Origin: Bifidobacterium longum subsp. longum JCM 1217
Lineage (GTDB): Bacteria > Actinomycetota > Actinomycetes > Actinomycetales > Bifidobacteriaceae
Assembly (NCBI RefSeq): GCF_000196555.1
Contig: NC_015067.1
Span: 30,001-62,000 of the forward strand
Direction of reading: 5' to 3'
DNA length: 32,000 bases
Shown here: piece by piece, positions 5,172 to 27,100 of the stretch
How positions within the stretch are numbered: the stretch's first letter is position 1
How the letters are laid out: every line of letters starts with the position of its first letter
Notes under the pieces: generated by a model
What the model saw: only the letters and a program-made list of their open reading frames with translations
What the model was told of the DNA's origin: nothing
Databases searched by the model: none
Program-made: the position numbers and the translations under genes

Positions 5172-5201
5172 GCCGCACGACCTCAGGTACTCAACAGCAA
5201 C

Positions 5202-5277: not shown

Positions 5278-5287
5278 TTGCGGCAGC

Positions 5288-6574: not shown

Positions 6575-7119
6575 ATATGGGCGGATCCTTTCGTAACTGG
6601 TGTACGATGGCCTGCCGGCCCGAACGAGAGTCGTATCGCCCATATCCACGCACATCACGACGGCATGCCCCTGTGAACCATCCGGGCTGCACGAATCGAA
6701 TCAAATCGAATCGTGCGAACTGCGAACAATTCGCTAAACATCCTTGGTGTGCATTTCATCGGCGCTGCTGGCTCTTGTCGACGCCGACAAACAGAACTAT
6801 AACGCTGTTATGGGGTTGCTGTGGCTGATTTCTGTGGTCGGAAGCTATGAGCTTTCTCACATCGAAAACAGTTATATGACGGTATCGGCGTGATTGATAC
6901 GTGACGTCTGCCCGTGGACGCGGCATATCCCTCTCGGAAAACAATGACTCCGTCATGTCCATTTCTTGGTTTGACATGTTTTCGTTTGCAGCGTCGGTGC
7001 TCACCACGGTGACCGCGGCGTTCGAGTCGCCGGGCAGGGCCTCGACCGAGGGTCTCATCCTCGGCTGAGATGTGGGCGGTACTATGGATTCTTATCGATA
7101 AGGTTCGTGATATGCGGAG

Positions 7120-8127: not shown

Positions 8128-8252
8128 AGTCTTTGGCCGTGTTGAGCTTCAATTGGGTGATTGGACTGGCACCAGCGGCTGATATCAGATATGCCGAAAG
8201 CAGCGATGATCGGATTTAAGTTGCTGGAGATGACAGGATGGATTGCTCTTTA

Positions 8253-8335
8253 CCCCTTTCACCATCTTGCAATAATTCTTACATGTAAGAACTCTCTGTT
8301 AACATGTAAGAATTATTGCAAGATGGTGAAAGGGG
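8253..8335. repeat. perfect 34-bp-arm palindrome (15-nt spacer) abutting the start codon of the next gene
   Basis: CCCCTTTCACCATCTTGCAATAATTCTTACATGT (8253-8286) is the exact reverse complement of 8302-8335. The spacer is AAGAACTCTCTGTTA. The right arm ends in GAAAGGGG immediately before the ATG at 8336. Confidence 0.9.
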
Positions 8336-9991
8336 ATGCTCATGTTGCCGGCCAAAGAAAGTTTGACGGTTGAGTTCAAGAGTGAGCAGAAGCGCCCTCA
8401 ATCGCATGATGAAATTGTTGACAACGTAGTGGCTCTAGCCAATACCGAAGGCGGCACACTGTATCTCGGTATTGAAGACGATGGCACTGTGACCGGCGTA
8501 TGTGACGAGCATCGCAATATCAATGGACTTGCGGTACTAATTTTCAATAAGACTGTTCCGCAGCTTCCCGCTCGCGTGGCGCTCTTGTATGAGAACGAGG
8601 TGCCGATAGTCAGTATTGAGGTGGATAACAGTCAGCAAATCGTATCTACCAGTCAGGGGAAGACATTGCAGCGCCGGCTGAAAGCAGACGGCTCGCCTGA
8701 GGTCGTTCCGCTGTTTGTTTCCCAATTCATTAGCCGTTTATCTCAGCAACGGTTCTACGATTTCAGTGCGCAACCTGCCCCAGAGGCTCGGTTGGACGAT
8801 TTGAATCCAGACTCACGGAACAAGTTGAGAAGCCATATTCGCAGTGCCAATGCGCAAAACTCGTTGTTGTCTTTTACTGATGAGGATTTCGATCGGGCAC
8901 TTGAGCTGGTTGTTGATGGCCCGTATGGATTGCAGCCATCTGTTGCTGGTCTGCTCACCATTGGTTCGGTTGATGCTATTCATCGATCGGTTCCAGCCGC
9001 ATCGGCTGTTTTTCAAGTGATGAAAGGCATGTCTCCAAAGGTCAATATGGATCCGTTCGTGTTGCCCTTGGTGGATATGTTTGATCGTGTAGGCGAGCTG
9101 ATGGAGCCGTGGAATCCCAGCCACGAAGTCATGAGCGGCTTGATTCGGGTCGATCTGCCAGACTTCGATCGAGGGGCATTCCGTGAGGCAATGATTAACG
9201 CTTTCTGCCATCGCGATTATGCACGAATGGGTTCGGTGAGGTTCCTGGTTGATGATGATGGGTTGACCATAGCCAACCCCGGAGGATTCATAGAGGGTGT
9301 TTCCGAAGATAACCTGCTTACTGCACAACCGCGTTCCCGCAATCCGCAGCTTGCCCTGATTCTGAAAGCTGCCGGATATGTTGAACGCACCGGACGAGGC
9401 GTGGATACCATCTATGCCGGGTCGATTGCGGCAGGCGGTTCTTTCCCGGATTATTCACAGTCCAGTGCTGAGGAAGTTATCTTGTTCTTGCGCCGCGTGG
9501 TACCTGACGAGGCATTCGTAACCATGATTGGCGACGAGGAACGTCGACGTGGGGCTCCATTGCCGGTCTGGTCACTGATTGTGCTCTCGCTGCTGCGTGA
9601 GCATCGTAGGCTTACCGTGGTCCAATTGTGCGATTTTTCTCATTTGGAGCATCGACGCATCGTGTCCGCTGTTGAGAATCTGGTGGAAGCTGGTTTGGTA
9701 GAGGGGGTCGGTAGCGGGAGCTCTCGTTCGTATATGCTGAGTGCCCGAGTGTACAAACGTTCAGAGGGGCTGGCGTCTTACGTGCGCCAGCGTGACATCG
9801 ATGCCACCCGGCGCAGTGGCCTTGTTCTGGAGTTCGCCGAAAAAAATGATGGTGTCGTCACTACGGCGGATGTCATGGATTTGTTTGGCCTGAGCTATAT
9901 CAGTGCATACCGGGTGTTGAAGAAGCTAGAGGATGCGGGCAAGTTGCGCCGCGAGGGGAATGGACCGTCATCCCGATACGTGTTGGAATGA
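8336..9991 (+). CDS. Schlafen/AlbA_2-domain protein with HATPase_c_4-like and C-terminal winged-helix regions (putative DNA-binding/ATP-binding protein)
   Basis: N-terminus ESLTVEFKSEQKRPQSHDEIVDNVVALANTEGGTLYLGIEDDGTVTGV matches the AlbA_2 (Schlafen-like) signature. The central region (NAFCHRDY...ANPGGF...RSRNP...ERTGRGVDTI) matches HATPase_c_4-like proteins annotated as RecG-like C-terminal transcriptional regulators. G+C is lower than in the flanks, by eye. Confidence 0.7.
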   Translation: MLMLPAKESLTVEFKSEQKRPQSHDEIVDNVVALANTEGGTLYLGIEDDGTVTGVCDEHRNINGLAVLIFNKTVPQLPARVALLYENEVPIVSIEVDNSQQIVSTSQGKTLQRRLKADGSPEVVPLFVSQFISRLSQQRFYDFSAQPAPEARLDDLNPDSRNKLRSHIRSANAQNSLLSFTDEDFDRALELVVDGPYGLQPSVAGLLTIGSVDAIHRSVPAASAVFQVMKGMSPKVNMDPFVLPLVDMFDRVGELMEPWNPSHEVMSGLIRVDLPDFDRGAFREAMINAFCHRDYARMGSVRFLVDDDGLTIANPGGFIEGVSEDNLLTAQPRSRNPQLALILKAAGYVERTGRGVDTIYAGSIAAGGSFPDYSQSSAEEVILFLRRVVPDEAFVTMIGDEERRRGAPLPVWSLIVLSLLREHRRLTVVQLCDFSHLEHRRIVSAVENLVEAGLVEGVGSGSSRSYMLSARVYKRSEGLASYVRQRDIDATRRSGLVLEFAEKNDGVVTTADVMDLFGLSYISAYRVLKKLEDAGKLRREGNGPSSRYVLE

Positions 9992-10013
9992 TTGGTACGC
10001 GTGAAAGTAAGTT

Positions 10014-10086
10014 CTTTCATCACCTTTCAATAATTCTTTCATGTAAGAACTCTCTGTTTACATGTAAGAATTATTGCAAGATGATG
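10014..10086. repeat. second, degenerate copy of the 8256-8328 palindromic element
   Basis: It aligns without gaps to 8256-8328 with about 6 mismatches in 73 bp. The right arm ACATGTAAGAATTATTGCAAGATG is identical, and the left arm carries 4 substitutions. Confidence 0.85.
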
Positions 10087-10095
10087 CAAGATGCA

Positions 10096-10138
10096 CACAA
10101 AACGGGGAAGCTCTGCTTGATGTGAGCGGGGCTTCCCC
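10096..10138 (-). terminator. rho-independent-like terminator downstream of the displaced ppc 3' fragment
   Basis: Stem GGGGAAGC (10104-10111) pairs with GCTTCCCC (10131-10138). On the minus strand the hairpin is followed by GTTTTGTGTG. Confidence 0.5.
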
Positions 10139-10157
10139 ATATGCGCTGGTGTGTAGA

Positions 10158-10386
10158 TCAGCCTGTGTTCTGCAGGCCGGCAGCGACGCCGGAGACGGTG
10201 CACAGGATGAGGTAGATGAATCCTGCCTGTTGGCTTTGCGAGAGCTCTTCCTTGTCCACCTTCTTGCGCAGCGACCTGAGGGCGAGCACCTGGGTGACGG
10301 ACAGCGCGTCCACGTACGGGGAGCGGATGCGGATGGCCTGGCCGAGCACGTGGCGGTGCTGCAGCGGCCACTTGTCGCCCACGATG
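10158..10386 (-). pseudogene. ppc: detached 3' fragment of ppc (last ~75 codons plus stop)
   Basis: ORF 10158..10382 translates to GDKWPLQHRHVLGQAIRIRSPYVDALSVTQVLALRSLRKKVDKEELSQSQQAGFIYLILCTVSGVAAGLQNTG. This equals the C-terminus of the full ppc at 19979.. with one K/R difference. I counted about 10 nucleotide mismatches, mostly synonymous. Homology ends near 10386. Confidence 0.9.
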
Positions 10387-10482
10387 CGCTCAAGTTAGTC
10401 CGGTCAATGGCTTTGGAAAATCATGGGGAGTGCGGCTGCGCGGGTTCGCTCCTCGACAAGGTGACTTGATTTGGGACCGCCG

Positions 10483-11760
10483 TTAACTTTCGTCAGACAC
10501 ATCGTAAATCCCGTCCAAGTATCCGTATCGTCCGTTGTGCTTGTCCTTCGAGAATTCGACGATATTGATGTTATCGTCAAGAGGAATGCCAGCCATGTGA
10601 TTCGTGTTTTCGATAATGATGATTTGTTGTGAAACCGCTTGTTTCGCTAGATAGGAAAACAGGCCCACTTTCATGGATGAGTCTTCCAGGGGTCGTATTC
10701 CTTCGTCAAACCCATGCAGAGGCGTATCAATAAGCAGCCAACCCGGAGTATGCTTTGACTGTTCATTGAGATAATCATGAAATGCGAGCATAACAACGCT
10801 GTTAAGAAATGCGCAGTATCCCTTGCCTTGTTCATCAGCCTTGGAATACCCTGCTATTTCGACATCAAAAGAAGATCTGCTGAAATCTGCAGTATCAGCA
10901 CCTTGAAAATGACATTGTTGCAGAATGCTGCGTATGGTGTTATTCATGGAATACCAGAAATCACTCTGGAAACATTCGCGTGGCTTGTATTTTTCATCAT
11001 TCTGTGTTGCTTGACCAGCGTCATCGAGTGCCTTGTTGAAACGAGCATGCAGCGCTATGAGTTCCGCATATTCCGCATGCAATTGTTCTGCATGGGCAAT
11101 TTGCTCAATATCTTGTTGCATGTGCTGCGCTGTTGGTTGAATGTCGGATTTGAGCGAATGCATATTTTGCCGATGCTGCTGTTTCTCCAGATGCAGCTCC
11201 TGTTGCACCTCATCGGCTTTGTCGACGAGGATGGCTAGATCGGTTTCAACGTCTGCTTGGATTCTGTGGATATGCTCAATTTCTGTTGAGACGATTAGAA
11301 TGTCCTGTTCAGTCGGCACAGACATGTGGATGGGGCTGTGGCAAAACTGACATGTGGCGGGATAGGCATGTGTGCGGGCATGTTTCATTGCCTGTAGTTG
11401 CAAATCAAGACGTGCAGCGTCTGATTCGTATTGACTGATAAGTACCTTACGTTGGCGAATAAGTACCTCAAGGTGCTCATATTGTTGATTAAGCTGAGAG
11501 ATATGTGAGATGGTATGGGCATCTCGATTGAGGAGAGTTTGTCTTTGCTGTTCTACGTGTAATGCTTTTTTGTGAAGGTCTTCCAAATAGGTGTGAATGG
11601 TCTTCCCCTCATTTGTTGCGATATGGCGCATCTCCTCAAGGTGTCTGATGCGAGGCTCTATATCATCCAACTGCTGATGGATGAACTGTTCCACGGCTTT
11701 TCTGCGGGCGTGACGTTCGCTGGCACTCTCTGTCTGTATGGAGTTGTCGATTTTTTTCAT
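10483..11760 (-). CDS. ABC ATPase, C-terminal portion (coiled-coil insert plus Walker B / D-loop / H-loop half) of an SMC/Rad50-like ABC-3C-type ATPase
   Basis: 425 aa. Residues ~20-260 are heptad-rich and helical with C137-Q-F-C140 at the midpoint. The C-terminal part has ...GKGYCAFLNSVVMLAFHDY...GWLLIDTPLHGFDEG...IIIIENTNH. It overlaps the upstream ORF by 98 nt in a different frame. Confidence 0.75.
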   Translation of the reverse strand: MKKIDNSIQTESASERHARRKAVEQFIHQQLDDIEPRIRHLEEMRHIATNEGKTIHTYLEDLHKKALHVEQQRQTLLNRDAHTISHISQLNQQYEHLEVLIRQRKVLISQYESDAARLDLQLQAMKHARTHAYPATCQFCHSPIHMSVPTEQDILIVSTEIEHIHRIQADVETDLAILVDKADEVQQELHLEKQQHRQNMHSLKSDIQPTAQHMQQDIEQIAHAEQLHAEYAELIALHARFNKALDDAGQATQNDEKYKPRECFQSDFWYSMNNTIRSILQQCHFQGADTADFSRSSFDVEIAGYSKADEQGKGYCAFLNSVVMLAFHDYLNEQSKHTPGWLLIDTPLHGFDEGIRPLEDSSMKVGLFSYLAKQAVSQQIIIIENTNHMAGIPLDDNINIVEFSKDKHNGRYGYLDGIYDVSDES

Positions 11761-12316
11761 CTTGAACTAGCACGAGCAACGAGGACAGACTTTGTGTGAG
11801 AGTTGCTAGAGAGGTACTTTTGGGGAAAAGAATGGAGGGGCGTGCACGTCCTATTTGGTCCTCGGGGACAATCATGAGATGTCTGATGGCATTCCATGTG
11901 AAAGCAACTGTATGGTAGGTTTCGTTTGTCGCTATTCTACGGGTTGATTCAACGCCTAGTAAGGCAAGAAGAACCGTATTGATTGATTTACCGGCACGTG
12001 ATGAAACGGAGTAGGAACCGGGGACGATCATTGGGTTGCTGGATTTTACATGGATAGTGTTCTGAACGTGAATCGAACGACTAAGCGAAACCTCACCGCC
12101 GTTGGTCACGAACGTGACCTGTGCAATTTCATAGGCAGTTTTATCGGTAAAGGGGAGCTCTTTCCCTCCGCAGGCAAATTCCACGGTTTTTGCGATTCTG
12201 GTTTTCCCGGTGTTCGAAGCGCCGATAATGCAGTTCAGCCCGCATGTGAGATTAATGGCGGATTCCACTCCGTCCTTTCTGATTGCCGAAATTCGACGTA
12301 TCCATGTGTTTCTCAT
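11663..12316 (-). CDS. ABC ATPase, N-terminal portion (Walker A half), out of frame with 10483..11760
   Basis: Walker A LNCIIGASNTGKTRI. The last ~35 residues (…DEKNRQLHTDRECQRTSRPQKSRGTVHPSAVG) look like out-of-frame read-through after the A7 tract at 11751-11757. The start overlaps the upstream stop by 4 nt (ATGA). Confidence 0.75.
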   Translation of the reverse strand: MRNTWIRRISAIRKDGVESAINLTCGLNCIIGASNTGKTRIAKTVEFACGGKELPFTDKTAYEIAQVTFVTNGGEVSLSRSIHVQNTIHVKSSNPMIVPGSYSVSSRAGKSINTVLLALLGVESTRRIATNETYHTVAFTWNAIRHLMIVPEDQIGRARPSILFPKSTSLATLTQSLSSLLVLVQDEKNRQLHTDRECQRTSRPQKSRGTVHPSAVG

Positions 12317-12732
12317 AACTGGTTGTTCTCTTTCGTTATTCGGTTCATGATGGTTTCATAATCGTTTTTTATCAAGAGCTGAACAGCCTGTCGATAGGAG
12401 GCAGCGTAATCGCCGTGCAATGCTTCCGAATATTGGAAACATTCCGGAGTGGCGCGGTACAACAGGCAAGTGGAATCCACGGTTGCTGCTCCAACGATTA
12501 CGAGTTGGGCTAATCCTGCTTGTATTCGTTTGCGACGAGCATCATATTCGGCTAAAGCATGTGGACCATCGCCGTGAAGATTGCGCTGTCCGAATCCGAA
12601 TGTTTTCATATAGGTGGCGATAAGGTCAATGGCTGTGATTTCGTCAATTGTGGAAGGTCTAGAAAGAAGGGGAAGGCATAATGTCAATCGTGTTGCTGTT
12701 TCCTGTGTTGTGTTAAATAATGAATTATTCAT
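12313..12732 (-). CDS. small alpha-helical protein, candidate ABC-3C 'middle component'
   Basis: 139 aa, sandwiched between the CTD-bearing gene and the ABC ATPase with 8-nt and 4-nt overlaps. Size and position fit the middle-component families. The assignment rests on architecture, not on a computed hit. Confidence 0.6.
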   Translation of the reverse strand: MNNSLFNTTQETATRLTLCLPLLSRPSTIDEITAIDLIATYMKTFGFGQRNLHGDGPHALAEYDARRKRIQAGLAQLVIVGAATVDSTCLLYRATPECFQYSEALHGDYAASYRQAVQLLIKNDYETIMNRITKENNQL

Positions 12733-13795
12733 TTTCGTGTACCCACTCCAGCATATGGTCGTTGACCAGCATATGACACAGCCCTTTCTTTTCCGCTGCC
12801 TTAATCATTGATGGGAATTGGGCTATAACTGAACCGGATAGGGGGAAACCGGCTGCCTGAGATAGCGTTGCTCGCATGCGTAACAGTCCATCGGCGTAAT
12901 CAGATGCGCAGGTATCGCATATTCCGTCATAAAGATCAACCTTCAGTGCATCAAATTCTTGCTCTCCGTTTTCTATAACATCCCGTAGATTCCTGCGCAT
13001 TCCTTCCGCATCGTAAAAATATTCACGTTGCTTGGCGTATTCAGGACGACATGTCTGAGGAAGATCGTCGGAACAGTTGATTGGCTTGTGCAAGTGATCG
13101 GCATAGGCGGCTTGCATCTGCGTGAGGTATGTCTTTTCAAGATGATCATCTGGTTTATCCGGTGGAATTGGATAAGCCTTCCAGGGGACCGAAGAGCGCC
13201 CAAGGTGCAATTTGCCGTTGTTGATGCGACCAGACGCCAGAGGTAAGTTTTCGAAAATATCGAATTTCGGCTGAAAGCTTATGCCGTCGATGAGAATGTC
13301 ACGTCCACCGGCATTCGCCTGGAGTATTGACAGAAGCCATTTTCCTGTGGCAGAAGGAAGCTCACTGATATCCGTAACTCTAATATTTGCCTTGATAAGC
13401 TCCTTTTGAAAATCGGCAAGGGCATCAATGCTGATATCGCAGCAAAGACGTTCTACTTTCGAGATATCTAGGCGCTGATAAAACTCGGCGGCTTTCCAGG
13501 CAGGAATCTTCTTGCGACCGTTATAAAAACGAGTCAGATCAGTATCGTTGATTCCAGACCAGACCCCGGTGGTAATAGTGGTCTTTCCGGGTTTGCGGTT
13601 TCGATGATGTTGGGGAAGTGGATTTCTTAGACCGTCATCCTCTAACACAGCATCGAAGAAATCCTTCATAAATCCCTTTTTGTGGTGGTCTACGCCAGAT
13701 ATATAAGGGTTTACGAGCTGACAGAAGACTCCCAGAGCATAGGTAGCAGTAGTTTCGGCCAAGTGAGTCTCCTTCTCGTCTCCATTTGTCTTCAT
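12725..13795 (-). CDS. ABC-3C-type effector-component candidate: unknown N-terminal domain plus ABC-3C C-terminal-domain-like tail
   Basis: ORF 12725..13951. I prefer the ATG at 13795 (MKTNGDEK...), which is preceded by GGAAGG. The C-terminal ~110 aa (YFYDAEGMRRNLRDVIENGEQEFDALKVDLYDGI...KKGLCHMLVNDHMLEWV) resemble the CTD that couples effectors to ABC-3C ATPases. The N-terminal ~250 aa have no motif I recognise. Confidence 0.6.
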   Translation of the reverse strand: MKTNGDEKETHLAETTATYALGVFCQLVNPYISGVDHHKKGFMKDFFDAVLEDDGLRNPLPQHHRNRKPGKTTITTGVWSGINDTDLTRFYNGRKKIPAWKAAEFYQRLDISKVERLCCDISIDALADFQKELIKANIRVTDISELPSATGKWLLSILQANAGGRDILIDGISFQPKFDIFENLPLASGRINNGKLHLGRSSVPWKAYPIPPDKPDDHLEKTYLTQMQAAYADHLHKPINCSDDLPQTCRPEYAKQREYFYDAEGMRRNLRDVIENGEQEFDALKVDLYDGICDTCASDYADGLLRMRATLSQAAGFPLSGSVIAQFPSMIKAAEKKGLCHMLVNDHMLEWVHENE

Positions 13796-14212
13796 CCGTC
13801 GCCTTCCCATGAGGTCACTGTTCCTACGATGGAAGCCAGATTCAGACGAATAAGCCGGTAAAACACTGGAATATCGCCAGTATACGCCGCTTACAGCTGG
13901 ATCAGAGAAGCGCAACTTTCGTCTATTGAAAGGATTTGAGACCAGACACATCGTAATTTCTTCTTCAACTCGATGTCATGCGATAACCGGTTATAGAAGT
14001 AGGGCATTGGGCTGTTCATCCGTTGTGCCGCAGTGAAGCTGACTGGGGCTTTTAACTAATCACATGCATGAGATCTGCCTGCTTATTCATGGTGACGCGT
14101 CGGTTTTCTCCTGAACTGACGCGTCATGCTTATCCAGCAGGTTGGATGCTCATGTGGTGGCCTATGCAAGCAGGTCTCGAAGACCCAATAACTGGGTGGG
14201 ATCGAGACTGGA

Positions 14213-14809
14213 ATGAGAATTTCATTGAAACATGAGGCAATGCGCGCCGGTAATGTGTCCGTAACTGATATATACAACTGTTCGGAAGTGGAATTACGGA
14301 CGATGGTTGAACGCGATAGATGTTTGCGCGCAATCCGTATGGGTTGTTCGCCACGTGATATTGCACTACGTACCCCTCAAACGATACTTCAGGAATTGTG
14401 GAATGCGGAGGAACGTTCCGCTCACGCTTATTATCGATCGGACCGTGTCAGCGGAGTTATTTGCTCCTATGAGGATTTGGTTGGTGCAGGGCGGGAACCC
14501 CAGGGGTGTTCTGCTTCTTCTGAGGATATTCTCTTATGCGCGGAGGATGCGAGAGAAAGAGCTAACTGTTTGCAAGCTATCTTTGCGGAGATCGAAAAAC
14601 TGCCAGCAGGTCAGCGCAATATCGTCAGGGGTGTACTGGTAAAGGGGGCATCTCAATCAGATATGGCACGAGAGCTGGGCGTGTCCCGAGCTGCGGTGTC
14701 CAAACAGCTTTCAACGGCTGTGCGCAAAATTCGTGCCGCTATTCGCGACGAAAGCAAAGAAACGAAGAACACGACAACATCAGCAGTTTGTGAAAGAAAG
14801 GAGCATTAA
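14213..14809 (+). CDS. sigma-70 region-4-type HTH protein (divergent ECF/TcdR-like sigma factor or late-gene activator)
   Basis: C-terminus IEKLPAGQRNIVRGVLVKGASQSDMARELGVSRAAVSKQLSTAVRKIRAAI is a clear sigma70_r4_2 pattern. The N-terminal part lacks an obvious region 2. The start codon is uncertain (alternatives at 14240 and others). Confidence 0.65.
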   Translation: MRISLKHEAMRAGNVSVTDIYNCSEVELRTMVERDRCLRAIRMGCSPRDIALRTPQTILQELWNAEERSAHAYYRSDRVSGVICSYEDLVGAGREPQGCSASSEDILLCAEDARERANCLQAIFAEIEKLPAGQRNIVRGVLVKGASQSDMARELGVSRAAVSKQLSTAVRKIRAAIRDESKETKNTTTSAVCERKEH

Positions 14810-15039
14810 TGGTTCATTTCAGTGTTATCAGAGTGAAAGGAAGCCCGTCATATGACTTCGATGCATGCGGAGACATTTTGGCTATGGCCAAAGCTGTAGG
14901 TGTCATGACGGAAAACATGCGCACTGATCGCTGCGACAATACACAGTGTGATGGAAGTCGTTGTAAGGGAAACACTATGTTTCGGTTGGAGTTAGACACC
15001 GAAAATCGCAGAGTTCATCGCAGACGCCATGCCAGATGA
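14809..15039 (+). CDS. small Cys-rich ORF translationally coupled to the sigma-like gene (hypothetical; possible anti-sigma/partner)
   Basis: TAATG stop/start overlap at 14807-14811. The 76-aa product contains CGD...CDNTQCDGSRC. No family was recognised. Confidence 0.35.
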   Translation: MVHFSVIRVKGSPSYDFDACGDILAMAKAVGVMTENMRTDRCDNTQCDGSRCKGNTMFRLELDTENRRVHRRRHAR

Positions 15040-15133
15040 AACGCCCGAGGTTAACACCTCGTGGCGAAACGGCAGTGCAGGTGAGGGCAGATATTGGGTC
15101 TGCCTTCAGCAACAGGTCCCGAAGGAGGACATC

Positions 15134-17530
15134 ATGACTGATCAGATGGTGCTGCAGACGCAGCAGTGGCTGAACAAGACATACGGGAATGATCCCCGAT
15201 TCAAGAAAATCAACCCGGACGGCAGAACTGGTTGGCCGACAATCTATGCGCTTACTCGCGCATTGCAGATTGAATTGGGCATCCAGTCCACTGCCGATAA
15301 CTTCGGTCCTTCCACCCAGCGGTTATTCAAGCAGCGGTATCCGAATGGGGTGCGGCAGCAGGCAGTTGCGGACAAGAGCACTTCCAACGTGTATTCCATC
15401 ATTCAGGGGGCGCTGTGGTGCAAGGGCTACTCCACTGGTGGCAACATCTCACAGCATTTCTACGACGGAACAGGTTCCGCGATCAGGAAGCTTAAGGCTG
15501 ATATGGGCATAGAGGGAGATTCCAGCGTAGACGTTGAGATCATGGGGGCGTTGCTCTCGATGAAGCAGTTCGTGCTGCTGGCCTCTTATGGCGGTATCGA
15601 CTCCGTCCGTAGGGCACAGCAGTTCATCAACAAAGCATATCGTCCATACACGGGCATCATTCCGACTGATGGACTGTACGGCAGGGAGATGAACACGGCT
15701 CTTATCCAGGTGCTTCAGTCGCTTGAAGGTTTTTCACCCAGTGAGGCAACGGGGAATTTCGGCAACGGAACTAGATCTCGTTTGAAAACGATAACAGCAA
15801 ATAACGCATCCTCTAATGAGTCGTGGGTCTGGCTCGCCAGCACGGCTTTGGCGTGTAATGGGATCGGGGGCGGGCCGACCTTCGTATGGACGAGCACGTT
15901 CGCCAATATCGTGAAAGCGTTCCAGGAGCGTTATGCCATTGCTGTGACGGGCTCTATTGATTCGACCACGTGGATGAGCCTGTTGACATCTAAAGGTGAT
16001 CCTGACCGTCCGTGTGTGGCCTGTGACACTAGGTTCGAAATTACCGACGCCAGGTTGGCGACGTTGAAGGCAGACGGGTATGAAATCGTGGGACGTTATC
16101 TGACGGAGCCTGGCCAGTCGTCGTTGGCGCCCAAGGATTACTTTAAGGCCATCCGTCCGGGTGAGCTCGAGCGCATCACTCGGGGCGGCATGCGGTTCTT
16201 CCCGATCTTCCAGGAGTACTCCACGAAGCTGGAGCATTTCACCCCGGCAAACGGCGCTGCTCATGCCAAGACCGCTCGTGAGGCGGCGCAGCGTCTTGGC
16301 ATCCCTCCCACCCATATCTACTTCGCTGTAGACTTCGATGCGACCGATGACCAGGTGACCAGCAATATCCTGCCATACTTCCGTGCGGTTTGTTCGTCTC
16401 TTGGTGGTGGATACGGAGTAGGGATTTACGCGTCCCGCAATATTTGTTCCCGCGTCATCGGTGCGGGATGCGCGAGTAACGCGTTTGTGTCCGACATGTC
16501 GACGGGATTCTCGGGCAATCTCGGCTTCCCCATCCCGGACGGTTGGGTCTATGACCAGTTCACCGAGATTGACGATTACAAGGGCCAGGGCTGGGATCTG
16601 GACCGTGTTGCCTATTCCGGGAAGGTATCAGCATGCGCTTCACTGTTGCCTGCCGTGCCAGTGCCTGCGCCTGATCCCGATCCCGTCTCGCCAGAAACGG
16701 ATCCGCTGCTAAGATGGGTCGCCGTCACGGAGCAGGAGTGTCGCAAAGCCCTTGCCGCTCTGGGTACCCAGGTAGCGGTTTACGAGGACAGCATCGGTCA
16801 ATTCATCCTGGAATGGCTCCGCAAACCTGAATACTGGTCGGAAGGCGGTAGCGGGACACAAGCAATGTGGCACGCATATACTCCTGAAGTTTCGACTCCG
16901 CCCGACTTGGACGCGGCGCGTGTGGTATGTGCCAATGTATGCGAAGCACAGCCTTCAATTAAAGAGAAACTGCCATCGACTCGAGATGTTGCACACATGG
17001 CTGCAACTGCTCTCGGATACCTGACATGGGGTATCGAAAACAATCCAGCCAAATATGGTCTAGGCGATTTAGGTGGCTGGCCTCTCGACTTGTTGCAGAT
17101 CTGGGGTGCCTATCGCCGTGACGGCAAGCATGCCGACTTGGCAGCATGGCTCTATAAGCACCTTGGGAAAGATGAAGGATTCGGGTACGATGACGTTCTT
17201 GCGGATGCAGATGCATGGCTAATTGCTTCTAGTATGAGGAAACGATCCGGTTCGACGGTTCTTTCTGCTGCTATGCGTGAAACGTTTAAGCAGAGTGAGA
17301 CCCATCGTATCGTTCGATTCTACGACGAACGTTTTGCATCAAGCGCAGATAATGTGGTGAGTGCATATTCAACAATGGCGGACGGTCTTGATGCACTTGG
17401 TTTGACAAATATTGGAATGAGCGAAAGCATCCTAAAAAAGGCTGCCGGTACAGACAAGCTTCCTGATAAGCAGGAAGCTGAAGTGAGTGCTCGGGCGTTC
17501 GCTGCATTCATTGATCAGCCAAGACGGTAG
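15134..17530 (+). CDS. 798-aa multidomain protein: N-terminal peptidoglycan-binding-like repeats, DUF1906 (Rv2525c-like glycoside-hydrolase-like) domain, Pro-rich linker, unknown ~270-aa C-terminal domain
   Basis: Start at the ATG at 15134 behind GAAGGAGGA. There are four PG_binding_1-like helical repeats (VLQTQQWLNKTYG...GWPTIYALTRALQIELGI etc.). The DUF1906-like core spans ~16020-16640 (LKADGYEIVGRYL...FFPIFQE...HIYFAVDFDA...GVGIYASRNICSRV...GWVYDQF). The linker is PAVPVPAPDPDPVSPETDP. No N-terminal signal peptide or TM segment is present. Confidence 0.8.
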   Translation: MTDQMVLQTQQWLNKTYGNDPRFKKINPDGRTGWPTIYALTRALQIELGIQSTADNFGPSTQRLFKQRYPNGVRQQAVADKSTSNVYSIIQGALWCKGYSTGGNISQHFYDGTGSAIRKLKADMGIEGDSSVDVEIMGALLSMKQFVLLASYGGIDSVRRAQQFINKAYRPYTGIIPTDGLYGREMNTALIQVLQSLEGFSPSEATGNFGNGTRSRLKTITANNASSNESWVWLASTALACNGIGGGPTFVWTSTFANIVKAFQERYAIAVTGSIDSTTWMSLLTSKGDPDRPCVACDTRFEITDARLATLKADGYEIVGRYLTEPGQSSLAPKDYFKAIRPGELERITRGGMRFFPIFQEYSTKLEHFTPANGAAHAKTAREAAQRLGIPPTHIYFAVDFDATDDQVTSNILPYFRAVCSSLGGGYGVGIYASRNICSRVIGAGCASNAFVSDMSTGFSGNLGFPIPDGWVYDQFTEIDDYKGQGWDLDRVAYSGKVSACASLLPAVPVPAPDPDPVSPETDPLLRWVAVTEQECRKALAALGTQVAVYEDSIGQFILEWLRKPEYWSEGGSGTQAMWHAYTPEVSTPPDLDAARVVCANVCEAQPSIKEKLPSTRDVAHMAATALGYLTWGIENNPAKYGLGDLGGWPLDLLQIWGAYRRDGKHADLAAWLYKHLGKDEGFGYDDVLADADAWLIASSMRKRSGSTVLSAAMRETFKQSETHRIVRFYDERFASSADNVVSAYSTMADGLDALGLTNIGMSESILKKAAGTDKLPDKQEAEVSARAFAAFIDQPRR

Positions 17531-17545
17531 CTCGCATAATGCATT

Positions 17546-17578
17546 ATGTGTGGGCAGATGTGTCGTCTGCCCACACAT
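17546..17578. terminator. bidirectional hairpin between convergent genes
   Basis: ATGTGTGGGCAGA (17546-17558) pairs perfectly with TCTGCCCACACAT (17566-17578), with a 7-nt loop. Confidence 0.65.
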
Positions 17579-17629
17579 TCGCTGTTGTGCTTTCGATTTG
17601 GAATTCCTCTGCCAGATACGGGGAAACTT

Positions 17630-18145
17630 CTAAAAGGCCGCTATGCCGAGGAAGAGTCCTGTAATACCGGTGGCCATCAATACGATGATGGTGATGATTC
17701 CGGCGAAGATGCGTACAGGAAGGGTTTCTTTTCCATGGTTTGATGGGCTGTCCGCAACTAATCTCATTACTCCAGCTGTAACCCAGCAAACTGCGCCCAG
17801 GACTAGTGCCAGGAATTCTCGACACCATTCCGTTTCAAGTGCGGGAATGCCGACGATTGATGACGGGTCGCTTGCCAGTCTTGGCGGAATAGCGCATAGG
17901 ATACGCTCCAATATCAGGTAAGGGGTATCAAAATGGATCAGAGTCAAAGCGAATGGGAGCTGTAGCGCCAGTCCTATCCACCACAGCGTGCGTCGGATGG
18001 TCGCGAGTCTGTCGCCCGGCCTAGTGTCCGGCTTGCCGCCTTCGCCCTCCGTCCCGGCACCGTCCGCGGGCGTGTGGTCCCCCTCGTGCGCGTCCGTCGT
18101 CCCGTCCGTGTCCCTTTCCGCGTCCATATGTCCCCCTCCGATCAT
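17630..18145 (-). CDS. 3-TM membrane protein with charged N-terminal tail (candidate immunity/holin-like partner), copy 1
   Basis: ORF 17630..18319 trimmed to M59 (MIGGGHMDAERD...), because its paralog starts at the same MIGG motif and the upstream 58 codons lie in the ppc-downstream repeat. Hydrophobic segments: TLWWIGLALQLPFALTLIHF, FLALVLGAVCWVTAGVMRLV, IFAGIITIIVLMATGITGLFLGIAAF. Confidence 0.65.
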   Translation of the reverse strand: MIGGGHMDAERDTDGTTDAHEGDHTPADGAGTEGEGGKPDTRPGDRLATIRRTLWWIGLALQLPFALTLIHFDTPYLILERILCAIPPRLASDPSSIVGIPALETEWCREFLALVLGAVCWVTAGVMRLVADSPSNHGKETLPVRIFAGIITIIVLMATGITGLFLGIAAF

Positions 18146-18320
18146 CCGAGTCTGTCGCTCGGCCCGCGCGCCCGTTCCGTGCGCGCCGTCGCCGGCCAGT
18201 CTAGGGCCGTGCGACGCGAACGGGGAGGCCCGCGCCGTCAATCGGCACGGAACCTCCCCGTTCATCAAGCGGTCGGACAGCCGCGGATCAGCCCGTGTTC
18301 CGCAGGCCGGCGGCGACACC
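18123..18320. repeat. internal copy of the ppc stop-proximal ~30 nt plus ~140-bp ppc-downstream spacer
   Basis: It aligns with 19815-20011: CCGATCATCCGAGTCTGTC.CTCGGCC...GCCAGTCTAGGGCCGTGCGACGCGAACGGGGAGGCCCGCGCCGT...TCAGCCCGTGTTC.GCAGGCC.GCGGCGAC. It includes the hairpin CGGGGAGG...CCTCCCCG. Confidence 0.85.
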
Positions 18321-19128
18321 CGAGCAGGAGTGTCACAAAGCCCCTGCCGCTCTGGGTACCCAGGTGGCGGTTTATGAGGACAGCATCGGTCAACTCATCC
18401 TGCAATGGCTCCGCAAACCTACGTACTGGTCGGAAGGTAGTTCCGGCACGCAGGCACTATGGCATGCATACACACCGGAGCCGGTTACTCCCAGCGAATT
18501 GGCCTTGTCGCGTCAGGCATGCGGTGTCGCATGTGATGCACAGCCTGTCATCAAAGGCACGCTGCCCAATCGGGACATCGCCCATATGGCTGCCACATCC
18601 TTGGGATACTTGACATGGGGCGTTACGAACGATCCAATGGACTATGGTCTCGGTGATCTGGGCGGATGGGCTCTGGATTTGCTGCAGATTTGGGGAAGCT
18701 ACCTGGCGAATACCCCGAAAGAGGACCTGGCGTCATGGCTGCACGCTCATCTCGGCGAGCAAGACGCTCGTATGGGATTCAGTTACAGCGATGTTCTCGC
18801 GGACTGTGATGCATGGTTGCTGGCGCGGTCCATGCAGAGCAATTCTTCCGAAAGGTCTTTGTCCACCGCTATGCGGGACATGTTCGCGCAAAGCGAGACG
18901 AATCGAATTAAACGGTTCTATCAGTCCCGGTTCAAGGGAAGTGCGGACAACCTGGTCATCGCATTTCGAAAGCTTGTTGATGGAATCGATCTTGGAATAT
19001 TCGATAACGTATCCGGAAGTAAAAAAGCACTGCTCATTGCGTCACATGCAGACCGACTCCCGAGTCAAGCGGAGGCTGGTATATTGGCATTATCCTATGC
19101 TGAATCTCTTGAAAATCCGAACCGTTAA
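18295..19128 (+). CDS. stand-alone paralog of the C-terminal domain of the 15134..17530 protein (5'-truncated 'orphan' module)
   Basis: From ECHKAPAALGTQVAVYEDSIGQLILQWLRKP onward it aligns with residues after the Pro-rich linker of the large protein. Shared blocks are HMAATxLGYLTWG, YGLGDLGGWxLDLLQIWG and SDVLADxDAWL. The only in-frame start is a GTG at 18295 inside ppc-derived sequence, with no SD and no upstream ATG. Confidence 0.6.
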   Translation: MFRRPAATPEQECHKAPAALGTQVAVYEDSIGQLILQWLRKPTYWSEGSSGTQALWHAYTPEPVTPSELALSRQACGVACDAQPVIKGTLPNRDIAHMAATSLGYLTWGVTNDPMDYGLGDLGGWALDLLQIWGSYLANTPKEDLASWLHAHLGEQDARMGFSYSDVLADCDAWLLARSMQSNSSERSLSTAMRDMFAQSETNRIKRFYQSRFKGSADNLVIAFRKLVDGIDLGIFDNVSGSKKALLIASHADRLPSQAEAGILALSYAESLENPNR

Positions 19129-19146
19129 TCAATCATGATTGTGATC

Positions 19147-19183
19147 GCATTGCGTGGAATGATTCAGCCATTCCACGCAATGC
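19147..19183. terminator. bidirectional hairpin between convergent genes
   Basis: GCATTGCGTGGAATG (19147-19161) pairs perfectly with CATTCCACGCAATGC (19169-19183), with a 7-nt loop. Confidence 0.65.
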
Positions 19184-19198
19184 GCCTCTGGTAAAACG

Positions 19199-19834
19199 TC
19201 ATAGAGTCATTAGAGCGGAAAGTAGCGTTATCACAAGAACGGGAAAGACCATGACCAGCACGAGAAACGATATGATTCCCACAAGGACATGCGAGGCGGA
19301 AGAGGAATGATCACGAAGTTCCGGATATACAGATCGCATATATGAACGCACGCCAAAGATGACAAGCGCCGCAATCCAGCAGACTACCCCCATAATCAAT
19401 ACTAAGGTAAGTCTACGTACATACTCAGTTGCCGTAGTTAAATTCATGCACGAAGAGGAAGAGAACGTTAAGACTCTGCAGATTATAGTATCATCATCGC
19501 CATTGGCGCCCCATTCCGCCCACAAAATAAGTGCTGGTGAAAGCAGCAGTAATCCCAGCCACCATAGCACGCGTCTGGCCTTGCCCAAAGCCACATAGCA
19601 TCTACTCGCCTTAAGGAATTTGGTAGCTGCTTTCGGTGCCAAAGCATATTTCTTGCCGGAAAAATTTTCTGACGTATCTTCCAGGCCATGTTTTTTCCCA
19701 ATGTCATCGATCATAGCCGGATTCGCTTTGCAAATGTGGCGTTCGTTTCCGGCATCGCCCTCCGCCTTGATGCCGTCCGTTGGCCCGGTGCTCCCGCGCT
19801 CATTCGATGGCTTGTCCATGTCCCCTCCGATCAT
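19199..19834 (-). CDS. 3-TM membrane protein with charged N-terminal tail, copy 2 (paralog of 17630..18145)
   Basis: 211 aa, starting MIGGDMDK. Hydrophobic segments: VLWWLGLLLLSPALILWA, LTLVLIMGVVCWIAALVIFGV, VLVGIISFLVLVMVFPVLVITLLSALMTL. It shares the RxLWWxGL and VCWxxA motifs with copy 1. Confidence 0.7.
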   Translation of the reverse strand: MIGGDMDKPSNERGSTGPTDGIKAEGDAGNERHICKANPAMIDDIGKKHGLEDTSENFSGKKYALAPKAATKFLKASRCYVALGKARRVLWWLGLLLLSPALILWAEWGANGDDDTIICRVLTFSSSSCMNLTTATEYVRRLTLVLIMGVVCWIAALVIFGVRSYMRSVYPELRDHSSSASHVLVGIISFLVLVMVFPVLVITLLSALMTL

Positions 19835-19978
19835 CCGAGTCTGTCACTCGGCCAGCGCGCCCGTTCTATGCGCGCCGTCGCCGGCCAGTCTAGGGCCGTG
19901 CGACGCGAACGGGGAGGCCCGCGCCGTTTATCGGCACGGAACCTCCCCGCTCGCTTTTCCCGATCGGTCGGCCGGGAA

Positions 19979-22732
19979 TCAGCCCGTGTTCTGCAGGCCC
20001 GCGGCGACGCCGGAGACGGTGCACAGGATGAGGTAGATGAATCCGGCCTGTTGGCTTTGCGAGAGCTCTTCCTTGTCCACCTTCTTGCGCAGCGACTTGA
20101 GCGCCAGCACCTGAGTGACGGACAGCGCGTCCACGTATGGGGAGCGGATGCGGATGGCCTGGCCGAGCACGTGACGGTGCTGCAGCGGCCACTTGTCGCC
20201 CACGATGGCCAGAACCCACTTGCGGGTGAGCTCCATCTCGTTGAGTACCTTCTCATTGAGGTCCTCGCGGTCGCCGAGGGCAAGGTACATCCTGGCGATG
20301 CGCTCATCCGTCTTGGCGATGGACATCTCGATGTTGTCGATGAAGGTGGAGAACAGCGGCCATTCCTCGTAAGCCTGACGCATGGTCTCCAGATCGCCGA
20401 ACTTCTCGCATGCGGTGCCGAGACCGTACCAGGCGGCCAGGTTGATGCGGGCCTGAGCCCAGGAGAAGATCCACGGAATCGTGCGCAGGTCGTCGAGCGA
20501 CTTGGCGCCGAGGCCACGCTTGGCCGGGCGGGAGCCGATCGGCAGCAGGCCGATTTCGGTCAGCGGCGTAACGATCGAGAACCACGGGGCAAAGCCGTCG
20601 GTGTTCAACAGGTCGAGGAAGCGGTTGTGCGCGGCCTCGTCGAGCTGAGCGGCCATGTCGGCATACTTCTCGGTCATCTCGGTGTTGCGCTTCTCCACGC
20701 TCGGCGCGGACTGCAGCAAGGTCGCCGCAGCCACGGACTCGACGTGGCGGATGGCCAGCACCGGGTTGCCGTAACGGGCGAAGATGACCTCGCCCTGCTC
20801 GGTGAGCTTGAAGCGGCACTTGACGGAACCGACCGGCTGGGCGAGCACCGCGCGGTTGGCGGGGCCGCCGCCACGACCGACGGCACCGCCGCGGCCATGG
20901 AACAGGGTCAGGTCGATGTCGTGCGACTCAGCCCATTTGGCGATGCGCTCCTGAGCGGAGTGCAGGGCCAGCGTGGCGGAGGTCGGGCCGGCGTCCTTCG
21001 AGGAGTCGGAGTAGCCGAGCATGACCTCGAGCTTGTTGCCGGTGGCCTTCAGACGAGCCTGAACCTCGGGGATCTTGATCATTTCCTCGAGCACGTCCAC
21101 CGAGTTCTGCAGATCCTCAAGCTGCTCGAACAGCGGGATCACGTCGATGGTGGGCACGTCCTCCGGGTGGGAGAAGGCCAAGCGGTTGAGCTCGTAGACA
21201 TCCTTGATGTTCTGGGCGCTCTTGGTGAAGGAGATGATGTAGCGGCGGGCGGCCTTGAGGCCGTTGCGCTTCTGGATGGCACCGAGGGCGCGGAAGGTGT
21301 CGAGCACCTCGTGCGTCATCGGCTGCAGTTCGCCGCGCTCGCCGTGCAGGCCGTGCTCGCGGATATCCGCAAGGGCGCGGGCGTGCACCACGGAGTGCTG
21401 ACGGAACTCCATCTCCACCATGTGGAAGCCGAAGGTCTCGGTCTGCCAGATCAGATCCTGCAGCGGGCCGTAAGCGGAACGCTTGGCACCGGCGGCGGCC
21501 AGCGAACGCTGGACCACCTTGAGGTCGGCGAGGAAGTCGTCGCAGGAGTGGTACATGAGGTCGGCGTCGCGCTCGATGGTGTAGTGCAGACGATCGGCCA
21601 TCACCAGCATGACCGCGCGGTGCATCTCCTTGGTGGAGATCAGGGCGGCCTTGTCGGTCAGGCGCTCGCTCATTTCCTTCTGGTGGCTCCAGAGGCTCTT
21701 GAGCTCGGCGCTCGGCGGCGTGGTCTCGGCTTCCATCGTGAGGTTGCGGCCCACGGTGCGGGTGGCTTGCTCAAGGGCGGCGATCACGTGATCGGAGAAC
21801 TTGCGGGCCACGGCGCGGCTCACCTTGGCGGTGACGTTCGGGTTACCGTCGCGGTCGGAGCCGATCCAGCTGCCCGGGTGGAAGAACGCGGGGCAAGCGG
21901 GCTCGACGAGACCGGCCTTATCGCCCAGGACCCAGTCGTCGAAGCGACGGTAGACCTTGGGGATGGTGTTGAACAGCGTGTTGTCGAAGATGTCGAGAAT
22001 CGTGTCCGCTTCCTCAACCGGGGTCGGCTTCTTCAGCGCGATCGGAGAGGTGCGGAACAGGGCGTCGATCTCGTTGTAGAGACGGCGCAGGCATTCCTTC
22101 TTATCCGAGCCGCCGAGGCGCTTGTACTCCTCAAGCAATTCGGAAACGCGGCGAATCTTGCCTTCCACGGCCTTGCGACGGGCCTCAGTGGGGTGCGCCG
22201 TGAAGACGGGGTGGAATTCGAGCTGGTTGAGCAGTTCCTTGGCCTTGGCCGGGCCAGTCTCATTGATGAGCTGGTGGTAGGCGACGGTGAGCTCGTTGAT
22301 CGGGTCGACCGCCTGGTCAACGGGCACGTTGTTCTCGCGCTCGTGGAGCACGGAAACGCGGTAGTTCTCCTCGGACAGGTTTGCCAGATGGAAATACGTG
22401 GCGAACGCGCGGGCCAGCAGCTGGGCGTCGTGCAACGTCATGTTGTCGATGACGTTCACGGCCTCCTTCAGGCCATCCTGGTCGGGGTTCGGATCCTTCA
22501 GCTCGGCGAAATGCTCGGCGCTGGCCTCCACCGCGTAATGACGCACGGTGTCGAACGTAGACAGCAGTTCGGGGTTGTATTCGCCCAGTACGTTACGCAG
22601 GATCTCAAGACACAGATCCATGTCGTACTTCAGGCTTTCGGGAAGATCATGCTCCTCCGGGCCCTTTCGGCCGGTCCCGGTAGTGACGATGGCGGCGTCA
22701 GCGGGAGTGATCTGTTCTTCAGGTGTTGCCAT
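19979..22732 (-). CDS. ppc: phosphoenolpyruvate carboxylase
   Basis: ORF 19979..22822 trimmed to the ATG at 22732 (MATPEEQ...), preceded by AAGGAGG, giving 917 aa. Conserved Ppc blocks: VFTAHPTE, GSWIGSDRDGNP, MLGYSDSSKD, FHGRGGAVGRGGGP, and the C-terminal LQNTG. Confidence 0.95.
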   Translation of the reverse strand: MATPEEQITPADAAIVTTGTGRKGPEEHDLPESLKYDMDLCLEILRNVLGEYNPELLSTFDTVRHYAVEASAEHFAELKDPNPDQDGLKEAVNVIDNMTLHDAQLLARAFATYFHLANLSEENYRVSVLHERENNVPVDQAVDPINELTVAYHQLINETGPAKAKELLNQLEFHPVFTAHPTEARRKAVEGKIRRVSELLEEYKRLGGSDKKECLRRLYNEIDALFRTSPIALKKPTPVEEADTILDIFDNTLFNTIPKVYRRFDDWVLGDKAGLVEPACPAFFHPGSWIGSDRDGNPNVTAKVSRAVARKFSDHVIAALEQATRTVGRNLTMEAETTPPSAELKSLWSHQKEMSERLTDKAALISTKEMHRAVMLVMADRLHYTIERDADLMYHSCDDFLADLKVVQRSLAAAGAKRSAYGPLQDLIWQTETFGFHMVEMEFRQHSVVHARALADIREHGLHGERGELQPMTHEVLDTFRALGAIQKRNGLKAARRYIISFTKSAQNIKDVYELNRLAFSHPEDVPTIDVIPLFEQLEDLQNSVDVLEEMIKIPEVQARLKATGNKLEVMLGYSDSSKDAGPTSATLALHSAQERIAKWAESHDIDLTLFHGRGGAVGRGGGPANRAVLAQPVGSVKCRFKLTEQGEVIFARYGNPVLAIRHVESVAAATLLQSAPSVEKRNTEMTEKYADMAAQLDEAAHNRFLDLLNTDGFAPWFSIVTPLTEIGLLPIGSRPAKRGLGAKSLDDLRTIPWIFSWAQARINLAAWYGLGTACEKFGDLETMRQAYEEWPLFSTFIDNIEMSIAKTDERIARMYLALGDREDLNEKVLNEMELTRKWVLAIVGDKWPLQHRHVLGQAIRIRSPYVDALSVTQVLALKSLRKKVDKEELSQSQQAGFIYLILCTVSGVAAGLQNTG

Positions 22733-26840: not shown

Positions 26841-27046
26841 GAGGCCAAAACGGACTTCGAGGGGCTGATTTGACGTTCTGGAGAGATCTACTTCCGTTTC
26901 AAGGGGCTGATGCCTGAGTAGACGCGGCTCCAAAACGGCGGAATGGCGTTGACGTAAGGGCATTGATACACGTGGTCTACCGGATGATCAGCCCCTTGAA
27001 ACGGAAGTAGACCTCCGGCGGAGGCCAAATCAGCCCCTTGAAATGG
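26841..27046. repeat. nested inverted-repeat (MITE-like/REP-like) intergenic element with four copies of a TTCRAGGGGCTGAT core
   Basis: Inner pair: TCTACTTCCGTTTCAAGGGGCTGAT (26887-26911) and its exact reverse complement (26987-27011). Outer pair: TTCGAGGGGCTGATTTG (26856-26872) and CAAATCAGCCCCTTGAA (27026-27042). GAGGCCAAA flanks both outer copies. Confidence 0.8.
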
Positions 27047-27100
27047 GTTTTGAATACCGTAGCGCGGTGCGGACGGTGCGGACTGACTCTACCGGGCTTA

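Follow-up and report, generated by a model that had tools for sequence, protein, structure and literature searches.

In the present study we analysed a window of 32,000 nucleotides (nt) from the chromosome of Bifidobacterium longum subsp. longum JCM 1217 (NC_015067.1, positions 30,001 to 62,000), in which a 9.8-kb low-GC genomic island carrying a Lamassu defence operon lies between a gene for a LacI-family regulator and ppc, the gene for phosphoenolpyruvate carboxylase (PEPC). The island is divided by three copies of the ppc 3' end, designated A, B and C (Table 1). Copies A and B are probably pseudogene remnants left by sequential displacement through homology-facilitated illegitimate recombination (HFIR), with no dedicated recombinase involved. 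A first-pass annotation of this DNA had proposed accretion at the ppc terminus without an integrase, which is borne out here, and had listed construction by homologous recombination through ppc among its options, which is essentially what the evidence shows. The mechanism is a known way of island building, of which the locus is a clear example; no prior description of the locus was found in the searchable literature.

The three copies, claimed in the first-pass annotation, were confirmed by sequence alignment, and all of them are far beyond chance. Copies A and C align without gaps over 230 nt (95.7% identity, spacing of 9821 nt). Of their 10 mismatches, nine affect the third codon position and one the second (a K/R change), in exact correspondence with the earlier estimate of about ten mostly synonymous differences with a single K/R substitution. 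Copy B (18128-18324) can be aligned with 19818-20015 over 199 nt (88% identity), and part of its spacer (18133-18263) is 95% identical to the counterpart in copy C. It belongs to a diverged tandem arrangement (unit 1, 16730-18324; unit 2, 18322-20015), absent from the first-pass annotation, in which both units show the same order: the C-terminal domain (CTD) of a lysin-like, glycoside-hydrolase-like (GH) gene, a membrane protein gene (X), a spacer and a ppc tail. Identity between the units is very uneven, amounting to 95% (nt) for the spacer, 58% (amino acids, aa) for the CTD and 29% (aa) for X.

The nature of the joints is apparent from related loci (L134-L136), reached by a search with the C-terminal open reading frame (ORF) of LmuB, which carry a one-module island composed of ppc, spacer C, X2, a full-length GH gene, a helix-turn-helix (HTH) gene, LmuA/C/B and a 328-nt ppc remnant. 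L134 is of the same species as L009 (97% ppc identity). In these loci the island end (…TTTGAGCG / …CTAATTTGAGCG) meets ppc at -328, counted back from the end of the gene; at this joint ppc itself reads …GATGAGCG / …GGATGAGCG followed by CATCGCC, and in L134 and L136 the two partners share the 6-nt microhomology TGAGCG. The window has an island end identical to that of L134-L136, but its ppc remnant is shorter by 98 nt, a stretch bounded by CATCG repeats, and the -230 boundary of copy A is therefore the end-point of a secondary deletion. The remnant in L134 is only 85% identical to the ppc tail of the same genome.

At the second joint (J_B), a three-way comparison of copy B, copy C and the intact GH gene of the window (GH1) revealed a microhomology of approximately 5 nt (CGGAG/CCGAG). 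Fusion of copy B to the orphan CTD at a microhomology, as described in the first-pass annotation, was thus upheld, but the whole of GACACCCGAGCAGGAG is not microhomology: it is the junction sequence, in which about 5 nt are shared. A direct search for the parent of the orphan CTD' yielded short orphan-type calls only, and the parent was found via LmuB homologues. L136 contains ppc, spacer C, X2 (100% aa identity) and a full-length GH of 799 aa, in which identity is 96-100% to GH1 across the first ~400 aa and 93% to the orphan CTD' across the last 270 aa. Judged by these identities, the GH of L136 is the predicted intact parent of the orphan CTD'.

The boundaries of the ppc remnants, given by cassette, are -328, -230, -66 and -39. 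L009, which is another Bifidobacterium species, has an independent direct repeat of the ppc tail (66 nt, 97% identical) that encloses 1.2 kb of low-GC cargo (12714-14022), and as many as four ppc tails are present in L087; the boundaries are thus not constant. J_A and J_B are illegitimate joints, not attachment (att) sites.

Loci of the same species were obtained by look-up of genomes encoding the exact 917-aa ppc product, which occurs in 500 blocks of the assembly collection, while the ppc homologues from the genus scan, taken from among the matches listed, represent other species only, with no B. longum representative. The island combines atypical composition with presence/absence polymorphism and a clean empty site. 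The G+C content at third codon positions (GC3) is 0.41-0.62 in island genes versus 0.75-0.89 in the flanking genes, and the overall GC content is 0.51 versus 0.61, as the earlier description of a lower-GC island had implied. L107, a B. longum contig encoding an identical ppc protein, is island-free. A pattern scan of metagenomes also detected B. longum-like contigs (L129-L132) with the order LacI, palindrome, Schlafen-type gene (SLFN), palindrome, terminator A and intact ppc. In the empty sites of L107 and L129-L132 the sequence is unbroken across -230, and the two sides of L130 match the window at 99.5% and 99.1% identity. In L129 the A-type tail is found within an intact ppc; copy A is therefore the resident-type tail.

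The cargo is also variable. Internal deletions comprise 10241-13710 plus 13963-17401 (L096, L106 and L109), 10241-17285 (L108) and 6968-14817 (L088), and insertion sequences (ISs) of the IS21, ISL3, IS3 and IS256 families were detected at differing places in related loci. L104 carries a ~10% diverged allele of the Lamassu-HTH-GH part. The window itself is 100% identical to metagenome contig L101 and 99.6-99.99% identical to F8 (FP929034), ATCC 55813 and others. Comparison of the LacI-ppc interval across relatives, as suggested in the first-pass annotation, thus revealed both empty sites and cargo variation. Neither of the observations named there as contrary, i.e. an arrangement shared by all relatives or a composition like that of the flanks, was made, since island-free sites, cargo variants and a distinct GC3 exist.

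The layout of the locus is documented, as are the joints at microhomologies, the parental alleles, the crossover points and the empty sites; how the DNA was transferred, and in which order and direction the events took place, is inferred as follows. Remnants would be left by successive one-ended homologous recombination events, each with an illegitimate second joint. Chromosomal DNA from another Bifidobacterium lineage would pair via ppc or via the conserved N-terminal part of the GH gene, and its non-homologous end would be joined at 5-6 nt of microhomology inside the 3' end of the recipient ppc. The old ppc end would be displaced outward as a remnant, and, as the incoming DNA brings an intact ppc end, the essential gene would survive. 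In a first step, a set composed of spacer, X, GH, HTH and Lamassu genes would have been placed behind ppc, leaving the 328-nt remnant, which a 98-nt microhomology deletion in the lineage of the window would have trimmed to the 230-nt copy A. In a second step, two GH-X alleles would have been stacked, leaving a spacer and 39 nt of ppc as copy B, joined to the orphan GH fragment.

Three traits of HFIR are present at the locus: a conserved one-sided anchor (ppc, or the GH N-terminus with 96-100% aa identity), another end lying at a 3-10 nt microhomology (TGAGCG at J_A in L134 and L136, CGGAG at J_B) and displaced fragments that were kept and whose intact parents occur elsewhere (GH2/X2 in L136, the tail in L129). 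In L006, L009 and L010 the C-type spacer hairpin occurs natively behind ppc, and its presence there in several species fits incoming DNA that is chromosomal DNA of other bifidobacteria.

Once formed, the remnants serve as ordinary substrates for homologous recombination, giving rise to deletions and gene conversion. Repeat-mediated loss, foreseen in the first-pass annotation, does occur: L105, in which ppc and spacer C are directly followed by X1 and the orphan CTD and X2 are lost, is a B×C recombinant. The intact ppc ends of F8 and ATCC 55813 (the C copies of L081 and L082) show 3-4 mismatches to copy A versus 6-7 to copy C, which indicates A/C conversion.

The same island with the same J_A was identified in three downstream contexts, namely terminator A and SLFN in the window, an L107-like terminator with other genes in L085 and L110, and a C-type spacer, a third X gene and a further ppc tail in L087. 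Mapping of single-nucleotide polymorphisms (SNPs) placed the breakpoint within or at the end of copy A in L087, L085 and L110. The crossovers in copy A are spread over >100 nt, and copy A of L087 is a hybrid, with an A-type 5' part and an L009-type 3' part. The occurrence of the island in three contexts, with the switch in or at copy A, shows that copy A and the ppc body act as homology arms, by means of which the whole island could enter genomes with an unrelated ppc downstream region. Inversion was considered as the source of the different left flank of L085 and was rejected, as the gene order does not fit. The SNP pattern of the ppc tail of L130 (A-like, C-like, A-like) would fit a native allele just as well as an A×C deletion, and the island-free genomes with SLFN, terminator A and intact ppc may be ancestral rather than deletion products.

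Searches for a recombinase or a mobile vehicle gave negative results. In agreement with the first-pass annotation, no integrase, transposase or relaxase domains were found with Pfam and PADLOC in the ten main ORFs (7120-19834). Gene calls were available for ~33 related loci that bear the island or are B. longum-like; these contained scattered IS transposases but no integrase, and no recombinase was present among the 25 commonest Pfam families encoded by 115 ORFs downstream of ppc in ~33 species. The commonest of these families are housekeeping ones (carbonic anhydrase, CNNM and AhpC). Comparison of the island with phage and plasmid collections (megablast) gave no match, and a degenerate 46-nt ppc-tail pattern gave 0 matches in IMG/VR. 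Neither a recombinase in or beside the element nor a single fixed core across independent insertions, the marks of a site-specific island, was observed; the boundaries vary and the crossovers are spread.

These results bear on the possibility, favoured in the first-pass annotation, that the direct repeats represent the classic scar left by site-specific integration. The island would then be a decayed phage-like or integrative element with an attP that imitated the ppc 3' end (last ~330 nt); its integrase and other genes would later have been lost, and the repeats would be eroded attL and attR sites. Direct repeats of a gene 3' end around low-GC cargo would be expected of such an element, the GH protein belongs to a phage family (full-length match to phrog_15213, homologues in prophages), and the intact ppc end differs from the remnant (85% identity in L134) as if it had been supplied by the element. 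The scar interpretation is nevertheless contradicted by joints and deletion end-points at 5-6 nt microhomologies, by boundaries that vary from cassette to cassette, and by J_B, which truncates a gene whose intact parental allele exists in L136. Moreover, no integrase occurs in the ~33 loci with gene calls or among the commonest families downstream of ppc, the prophage GH gene is a low-GC moron in the replication region, away from att, and no phage or plasmid record with the ppc tail or the island was obtained. We therefore regard a decayed element as unlikely. It is quite improbable that the ppc tail, perhaps with the spacer hairpin, serves as the att site of a recombinase acting in trans, with tandem accretion of cassettes as in cis-mobilizable elements (CIMEs), even though ppc tails are repeated in tandem in the absence of an integrase in cis, the final ~50 nt of ppc hardly vary (the gene as a whole being 83-93% conserved between species, among the matches listed) and the hairpin spacer recurs with other cargo in several species. 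Conservation of the tail is accounted for by the conserved PEPC C-terminus, the spacer is native behind ppc in L006, L009 and L010, the copy A crossovers extend over >100 nt instead of lying at a single core, and the joints are microhomologous to unrelated sequence (GH codon 559 and the island end).

Tandem duplication of the B and C units in situ by unequal crossing-over, followed by divergence, would explain why the units are arranged head-to-tail (spacings of 1589-1713 nt) and are collinear throughout. This explanation is largely refuted, and we consider it highly improbable, given the extremely uneven divergence of the units, the B-type tail, spacer and X1 start that are 93% identical to those of B. 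erythrocebi, whose ppc is only 83% identical, and the C-type module that stands alone with an intact GH gene in L134-L136. That the repeated ppc ends arose from mis-joined contigs is next to impossible: scaffold gaps of 100 N lie exactly at the ppc repeats in L086, L094 and L095, but the arrangement is found at 99.5-100% identity in many independent assemblies, including the complete chromosomes FP929034 and CP118598.

Several points weigh against sequential displacement by HFIR as reconstructed above. To our knowledge, HFIR has not been demonstrated in Bifidobacterium. A pure 'Q' allele (ppc, spacer B, X1 and GH1, without the orphan) was not found among the loci compared. The location of several independent joints within the last ~330 nt of ppc looks non-random, and selection or ascertainment may account for it. 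Furthermore, a strongly structured spacer (-57 to -59 kcal/mol) comes with every incoming cassette, and the genus-wide Pfam check covered the 25 commonest families within 7 kb, which a singleton integrase could escape. The evidence fits either ppc or GH/Lamassu as the anchor of an event, and a linear double crossover and a Campbell-type insertion of a circular molecule yield the same product.

Several known systems resemble the locus in part. In Rhs and contact-dependent growth inhibition (CDI) systems, a 'C-terminal displacement' giving orphan toxin-immunity modules was reportedly described by Jackson and co-workers in 2009, a study cited in PMC5361080. As in these systems, the GH gene has a conserved N-terminal part (96-100% aa identity) and a hypervariable CTD with an adjacent small gene, an orphan CTD and its partner lie downstream, and a recombinant CTD exists (P0027). 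Unlike in these systems, X is convergent and not co-directional, and GH, which has an endolysin-like domain, is a member of a phage protein family. In Streptococcus thermophilus, ICESt1, ICESt3 and the CIMEs at fda have an att core that is fixed, and their cognate integrase is encoded by an element next to them. Like the cassettes at ppc, they have accreted in tandem downstream of a housekeeping gene, with direct repeats of the 3' end of that gene and units that lack an integrase; at ppc, in contrast, the boundaries are variable and coincide with microhomologies, and the loci surveyed yielded no integrase.

HFIR with sequential displacement has been proposed for type VI secretion system (T6SS) effector-immunity arrays of Vibrio cholerae and for Rhs orphans (Kirchberger et al. 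2017, PMC5361080). The ppc locus is similar to these arrays in having a conserved gene as an anchor, an illegitimate other end and no integrase, and in that older modules are displaced outward and kept as orphans, with the block spread by homologous recombination (PMC5361080). It differs in that the housekeeping gene ppc is one of the anchors and has a second copy of its 3' end in the form of a pseudogene remnant, and in its Lamassu cargo and Gram-positive gut commensal host. Integration hotspots flanked by core genes, in which defence islands are exchanged through homologous recombination, are a general concept, with defence-island hotspots of Escherichia coli as a case (PMC10121019). The variable defence cargo placed between ppc and LacI or Pro_CA, the presence/absence polymorphism and the allele swapping at the ppc locus are comparable, but here a piece of the flanking gene within the island provides one of the two homology arms. 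Since the arm is carried within the island, insertion is independent of the variable downstream neighbour.

One tentative and rather doubtful extension of these observations is that the ppc remnant, perhaps together with the spacer hairpin, acts as a built-in, host-independent pair of 'portable homology arms' for insertion by RecA alone. If so, an integrase-free defence island could enter behind ppc in any Bifidobacterium, whatever lies downstream, and selection for transferability would explain the predominance of remnant-bearing islands. Even apart from this, the locus offers a natural example of island building without mobile-element machinery, in which parental alleles, empty sites, joints and recombinants are documented, and it suggests that defence islands of an important gut commensal can be built and moved by homologous and illegitimate recombination alone. 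It is worth mentioning that direct repeats of a gene 3' end should not automatically be annotated as att sites, and that the LacI-ppc interval could serve as a ready-made neutral insertion and exchange site for B. longum engineering. Gaps of 100 N are located exactly at ppc-tail repeats in L086 (5442-5541 and 7438-7537) and in L094 and L095 (12013-12112); the repeats therefore break short-read draft assemblies of the locus.

Table 1. Features of the LacI-ppc interval in the analysed window (positions refer to the window; SLFN, Schlafen-type gene; wHTH, winged HTH).
Feature	Position	Strand	Remarks
LacI-family regulator	7120..8127	+	Pfam LacI and Peripla_BP_3; conserved left neighbour
Separate small insertion	8253..10091	+	palindrome + SLFN gene + palindrome
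83-nt palindrome, left copy	8253-8335		repeats I1-I4 and D6
SLFN gene	8336-9991	+	Schlafen/AlbA_2 + HATPase_c_4 + wHTH (Pfam)
83-nt palindrome, second copy	10013-10091		repeats I1-I4 and D6
Terminator-like hairpin + U-run of copy A	10093..10146	-	-28.5 kcal/mol, z -4.7
Copy A	10157..10386	-	ppc pseudogene remnant, last 75 codons + stop
Junction J_A	10382..10392		island end …CTAACTTGAGCG joined to ppc remnant CATCGTGGGC…
Lamassu operon	10483..13951	-	PADLOC LmuA, LmuB, LmuC; Pfam CTD6 and MC2
LmuB, two ORFs	11663-12316 and 10483-11760	-	PADLOC 2e-91 and 5e-42
LmuC	12313-12732	-	PADLOC 2e-24
LmuA	12725-13951	-	PADLOC 3e-60
Small HTH protein	14213..14809	+	sigma-70 region 4 / KorA-like (Pfam); upstream of lysin-like gene
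GH1	15029..17530	+	phage-type lysin-like; PG_binding_1, Rv2525c glycoside-hydrolase-like domain, variable CTD1 from ~residue 559
X1	17630..18127	-	small membrane protein (predicted); convergent with GH1, co-oriented with ppc
Copy B	18128..18324	-	spacer B 18128-18285 + last ~11 ppc codons and stop 18288-18324
Spacer B hairpin	18205-18282	-	-57 kcal/mol
Junction J_B	18318..18326		ppc tail (-39) fused to codon ~559 of GH allele
Orphan CTD'	18322..19128	+	displaced 3' part of second GH allele
X2	19199..19819	-	membrane-protein partner of orphan CTD'
Spacer C	19820..19978	-	hairpin 19894-19973, ribosome-binding site of X2; -59 kcal/mol, z -5.5
Copy C	19978-20207	-	last 230 nt of intact ppc
Intact ppc	19979..22732	-	917 aa in public records; ORF extends to 22822

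The cargo of the island includes the genes for LmuA, LmuB (SMC-like ATPase) and LmuC, which are encoded together. The trio is not intact in the window, where LmuB is split by a +1 frameshift resulting from a single 1-nt insertion in a T7/A7 run at ~11751-11757; other strains have an intact LmuB of 610 aa. The same frameshift is present in several independent assemblies, and it could stem from genuine inactivation, from phase variation or from a sequencing error that recurs.

The HTH protein always accompanies GH in related loci. GH1 matches phrog_15213 over its full length and has homologues with 50-52% aa identity in IMG/VR prophages, where the gene lies in the replication region, as one of the two genes of a low-GC moron, and not next to an att site. 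No obvious signal peptide was seen in GH by eye. Residues 559-833 of GH1 show 58% aa identity to the orphan CTD', X1 and X2 show 29% aa identity to each other, and the X1 N-terminus plus spacer B is 93% identical (nt) to the corresponding region of B. erythrocebi L006. The GH N-terminus is conserved (96-100% aa identity), while the CTD (54-68%) and the convergent partner with three transmembrane segments (29%) are hypervariable; a recombinant CTD is present in the database (P0027), and a further GH-X case was identified in L113 (10013-12942). A conserved N-terminal part, a variable CTD, a linked variable small gene and orphan modules together match the architecture of polymorphic toxin-immunity loci. 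On sequence grounds, GH-X appears to behave like a polymorphic module, with lysin/holin, toxin/immunity or exclusion as candidate roles. In L009 the cargo encodes two small ORFs (133 and 180 aa), with a C-type spacer hairpin behind the intact ppc.

The hairpin and T-run terminator reported after copy A in the first-pass annotation was recovered by folding: on its own strand, copy A is followed by the hairpin at 10093-10146 and then by UUUUGUGUG. Since 10014-10386 shares 94% identity with the sequence behind ppc in Bifidobacterium saguini, terminator A represents the saguini-type native ppc downstream sequence. The hairpins of spacers B and C consist of ~20 GC-rich pairs without a U-run, just past the ppc stop codon, and the C-type spacer hairpin recurs in L006, L009, L010 and L087. 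All of these hairpins were found by folding, since a simple terminator scan missed them because of loops >8 nt. Rfam analysis of the 7.9-20.4 kb region assigned no family to the spacers, and the palindromes gave sub-threshold matches to miRNA models only. The spacer hairpins may act as terminators, RNA stabilisers or recombination-prone structures.

On the left side, LacI directly adjoins ppc in the island-free loci of B. saguini (L001) and B. longum (L107). The left palindrome has 34-nt arms that are perfectly complementary (-59.5 kcal/mol, z -13.5, by folding), and at the same spot B. saguini has one palindrome without a gene. Because of this single, gene-free palindrome, the SLFN gene appears to have arrived at, or together with, the duplicated palindrome. 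The tract comprising 2504-8332 and 10014-10386 shows 94-96% identity to B. saguini L001 (99.4% aa for LacI), and outside it the window is only 66-90% identical to B. saguini (89.7% for ppc). This pattern suggests that the left-flank tract was exchanged fairly recently between the B. longum and B. saguini lineages.

The ppc reading frame can be extended to 947 aa, but an exact look-up of this longer product gave no match, the public call being 917 aa. On the far side of ppc (26846-27052 and 27101-28096), a pair of 66-nt inverted repeats (82% identical) adjoins a low-GC gene (GC 0.51, GC3 0.53), and the repeats and the gene may represent another small variable insertion.

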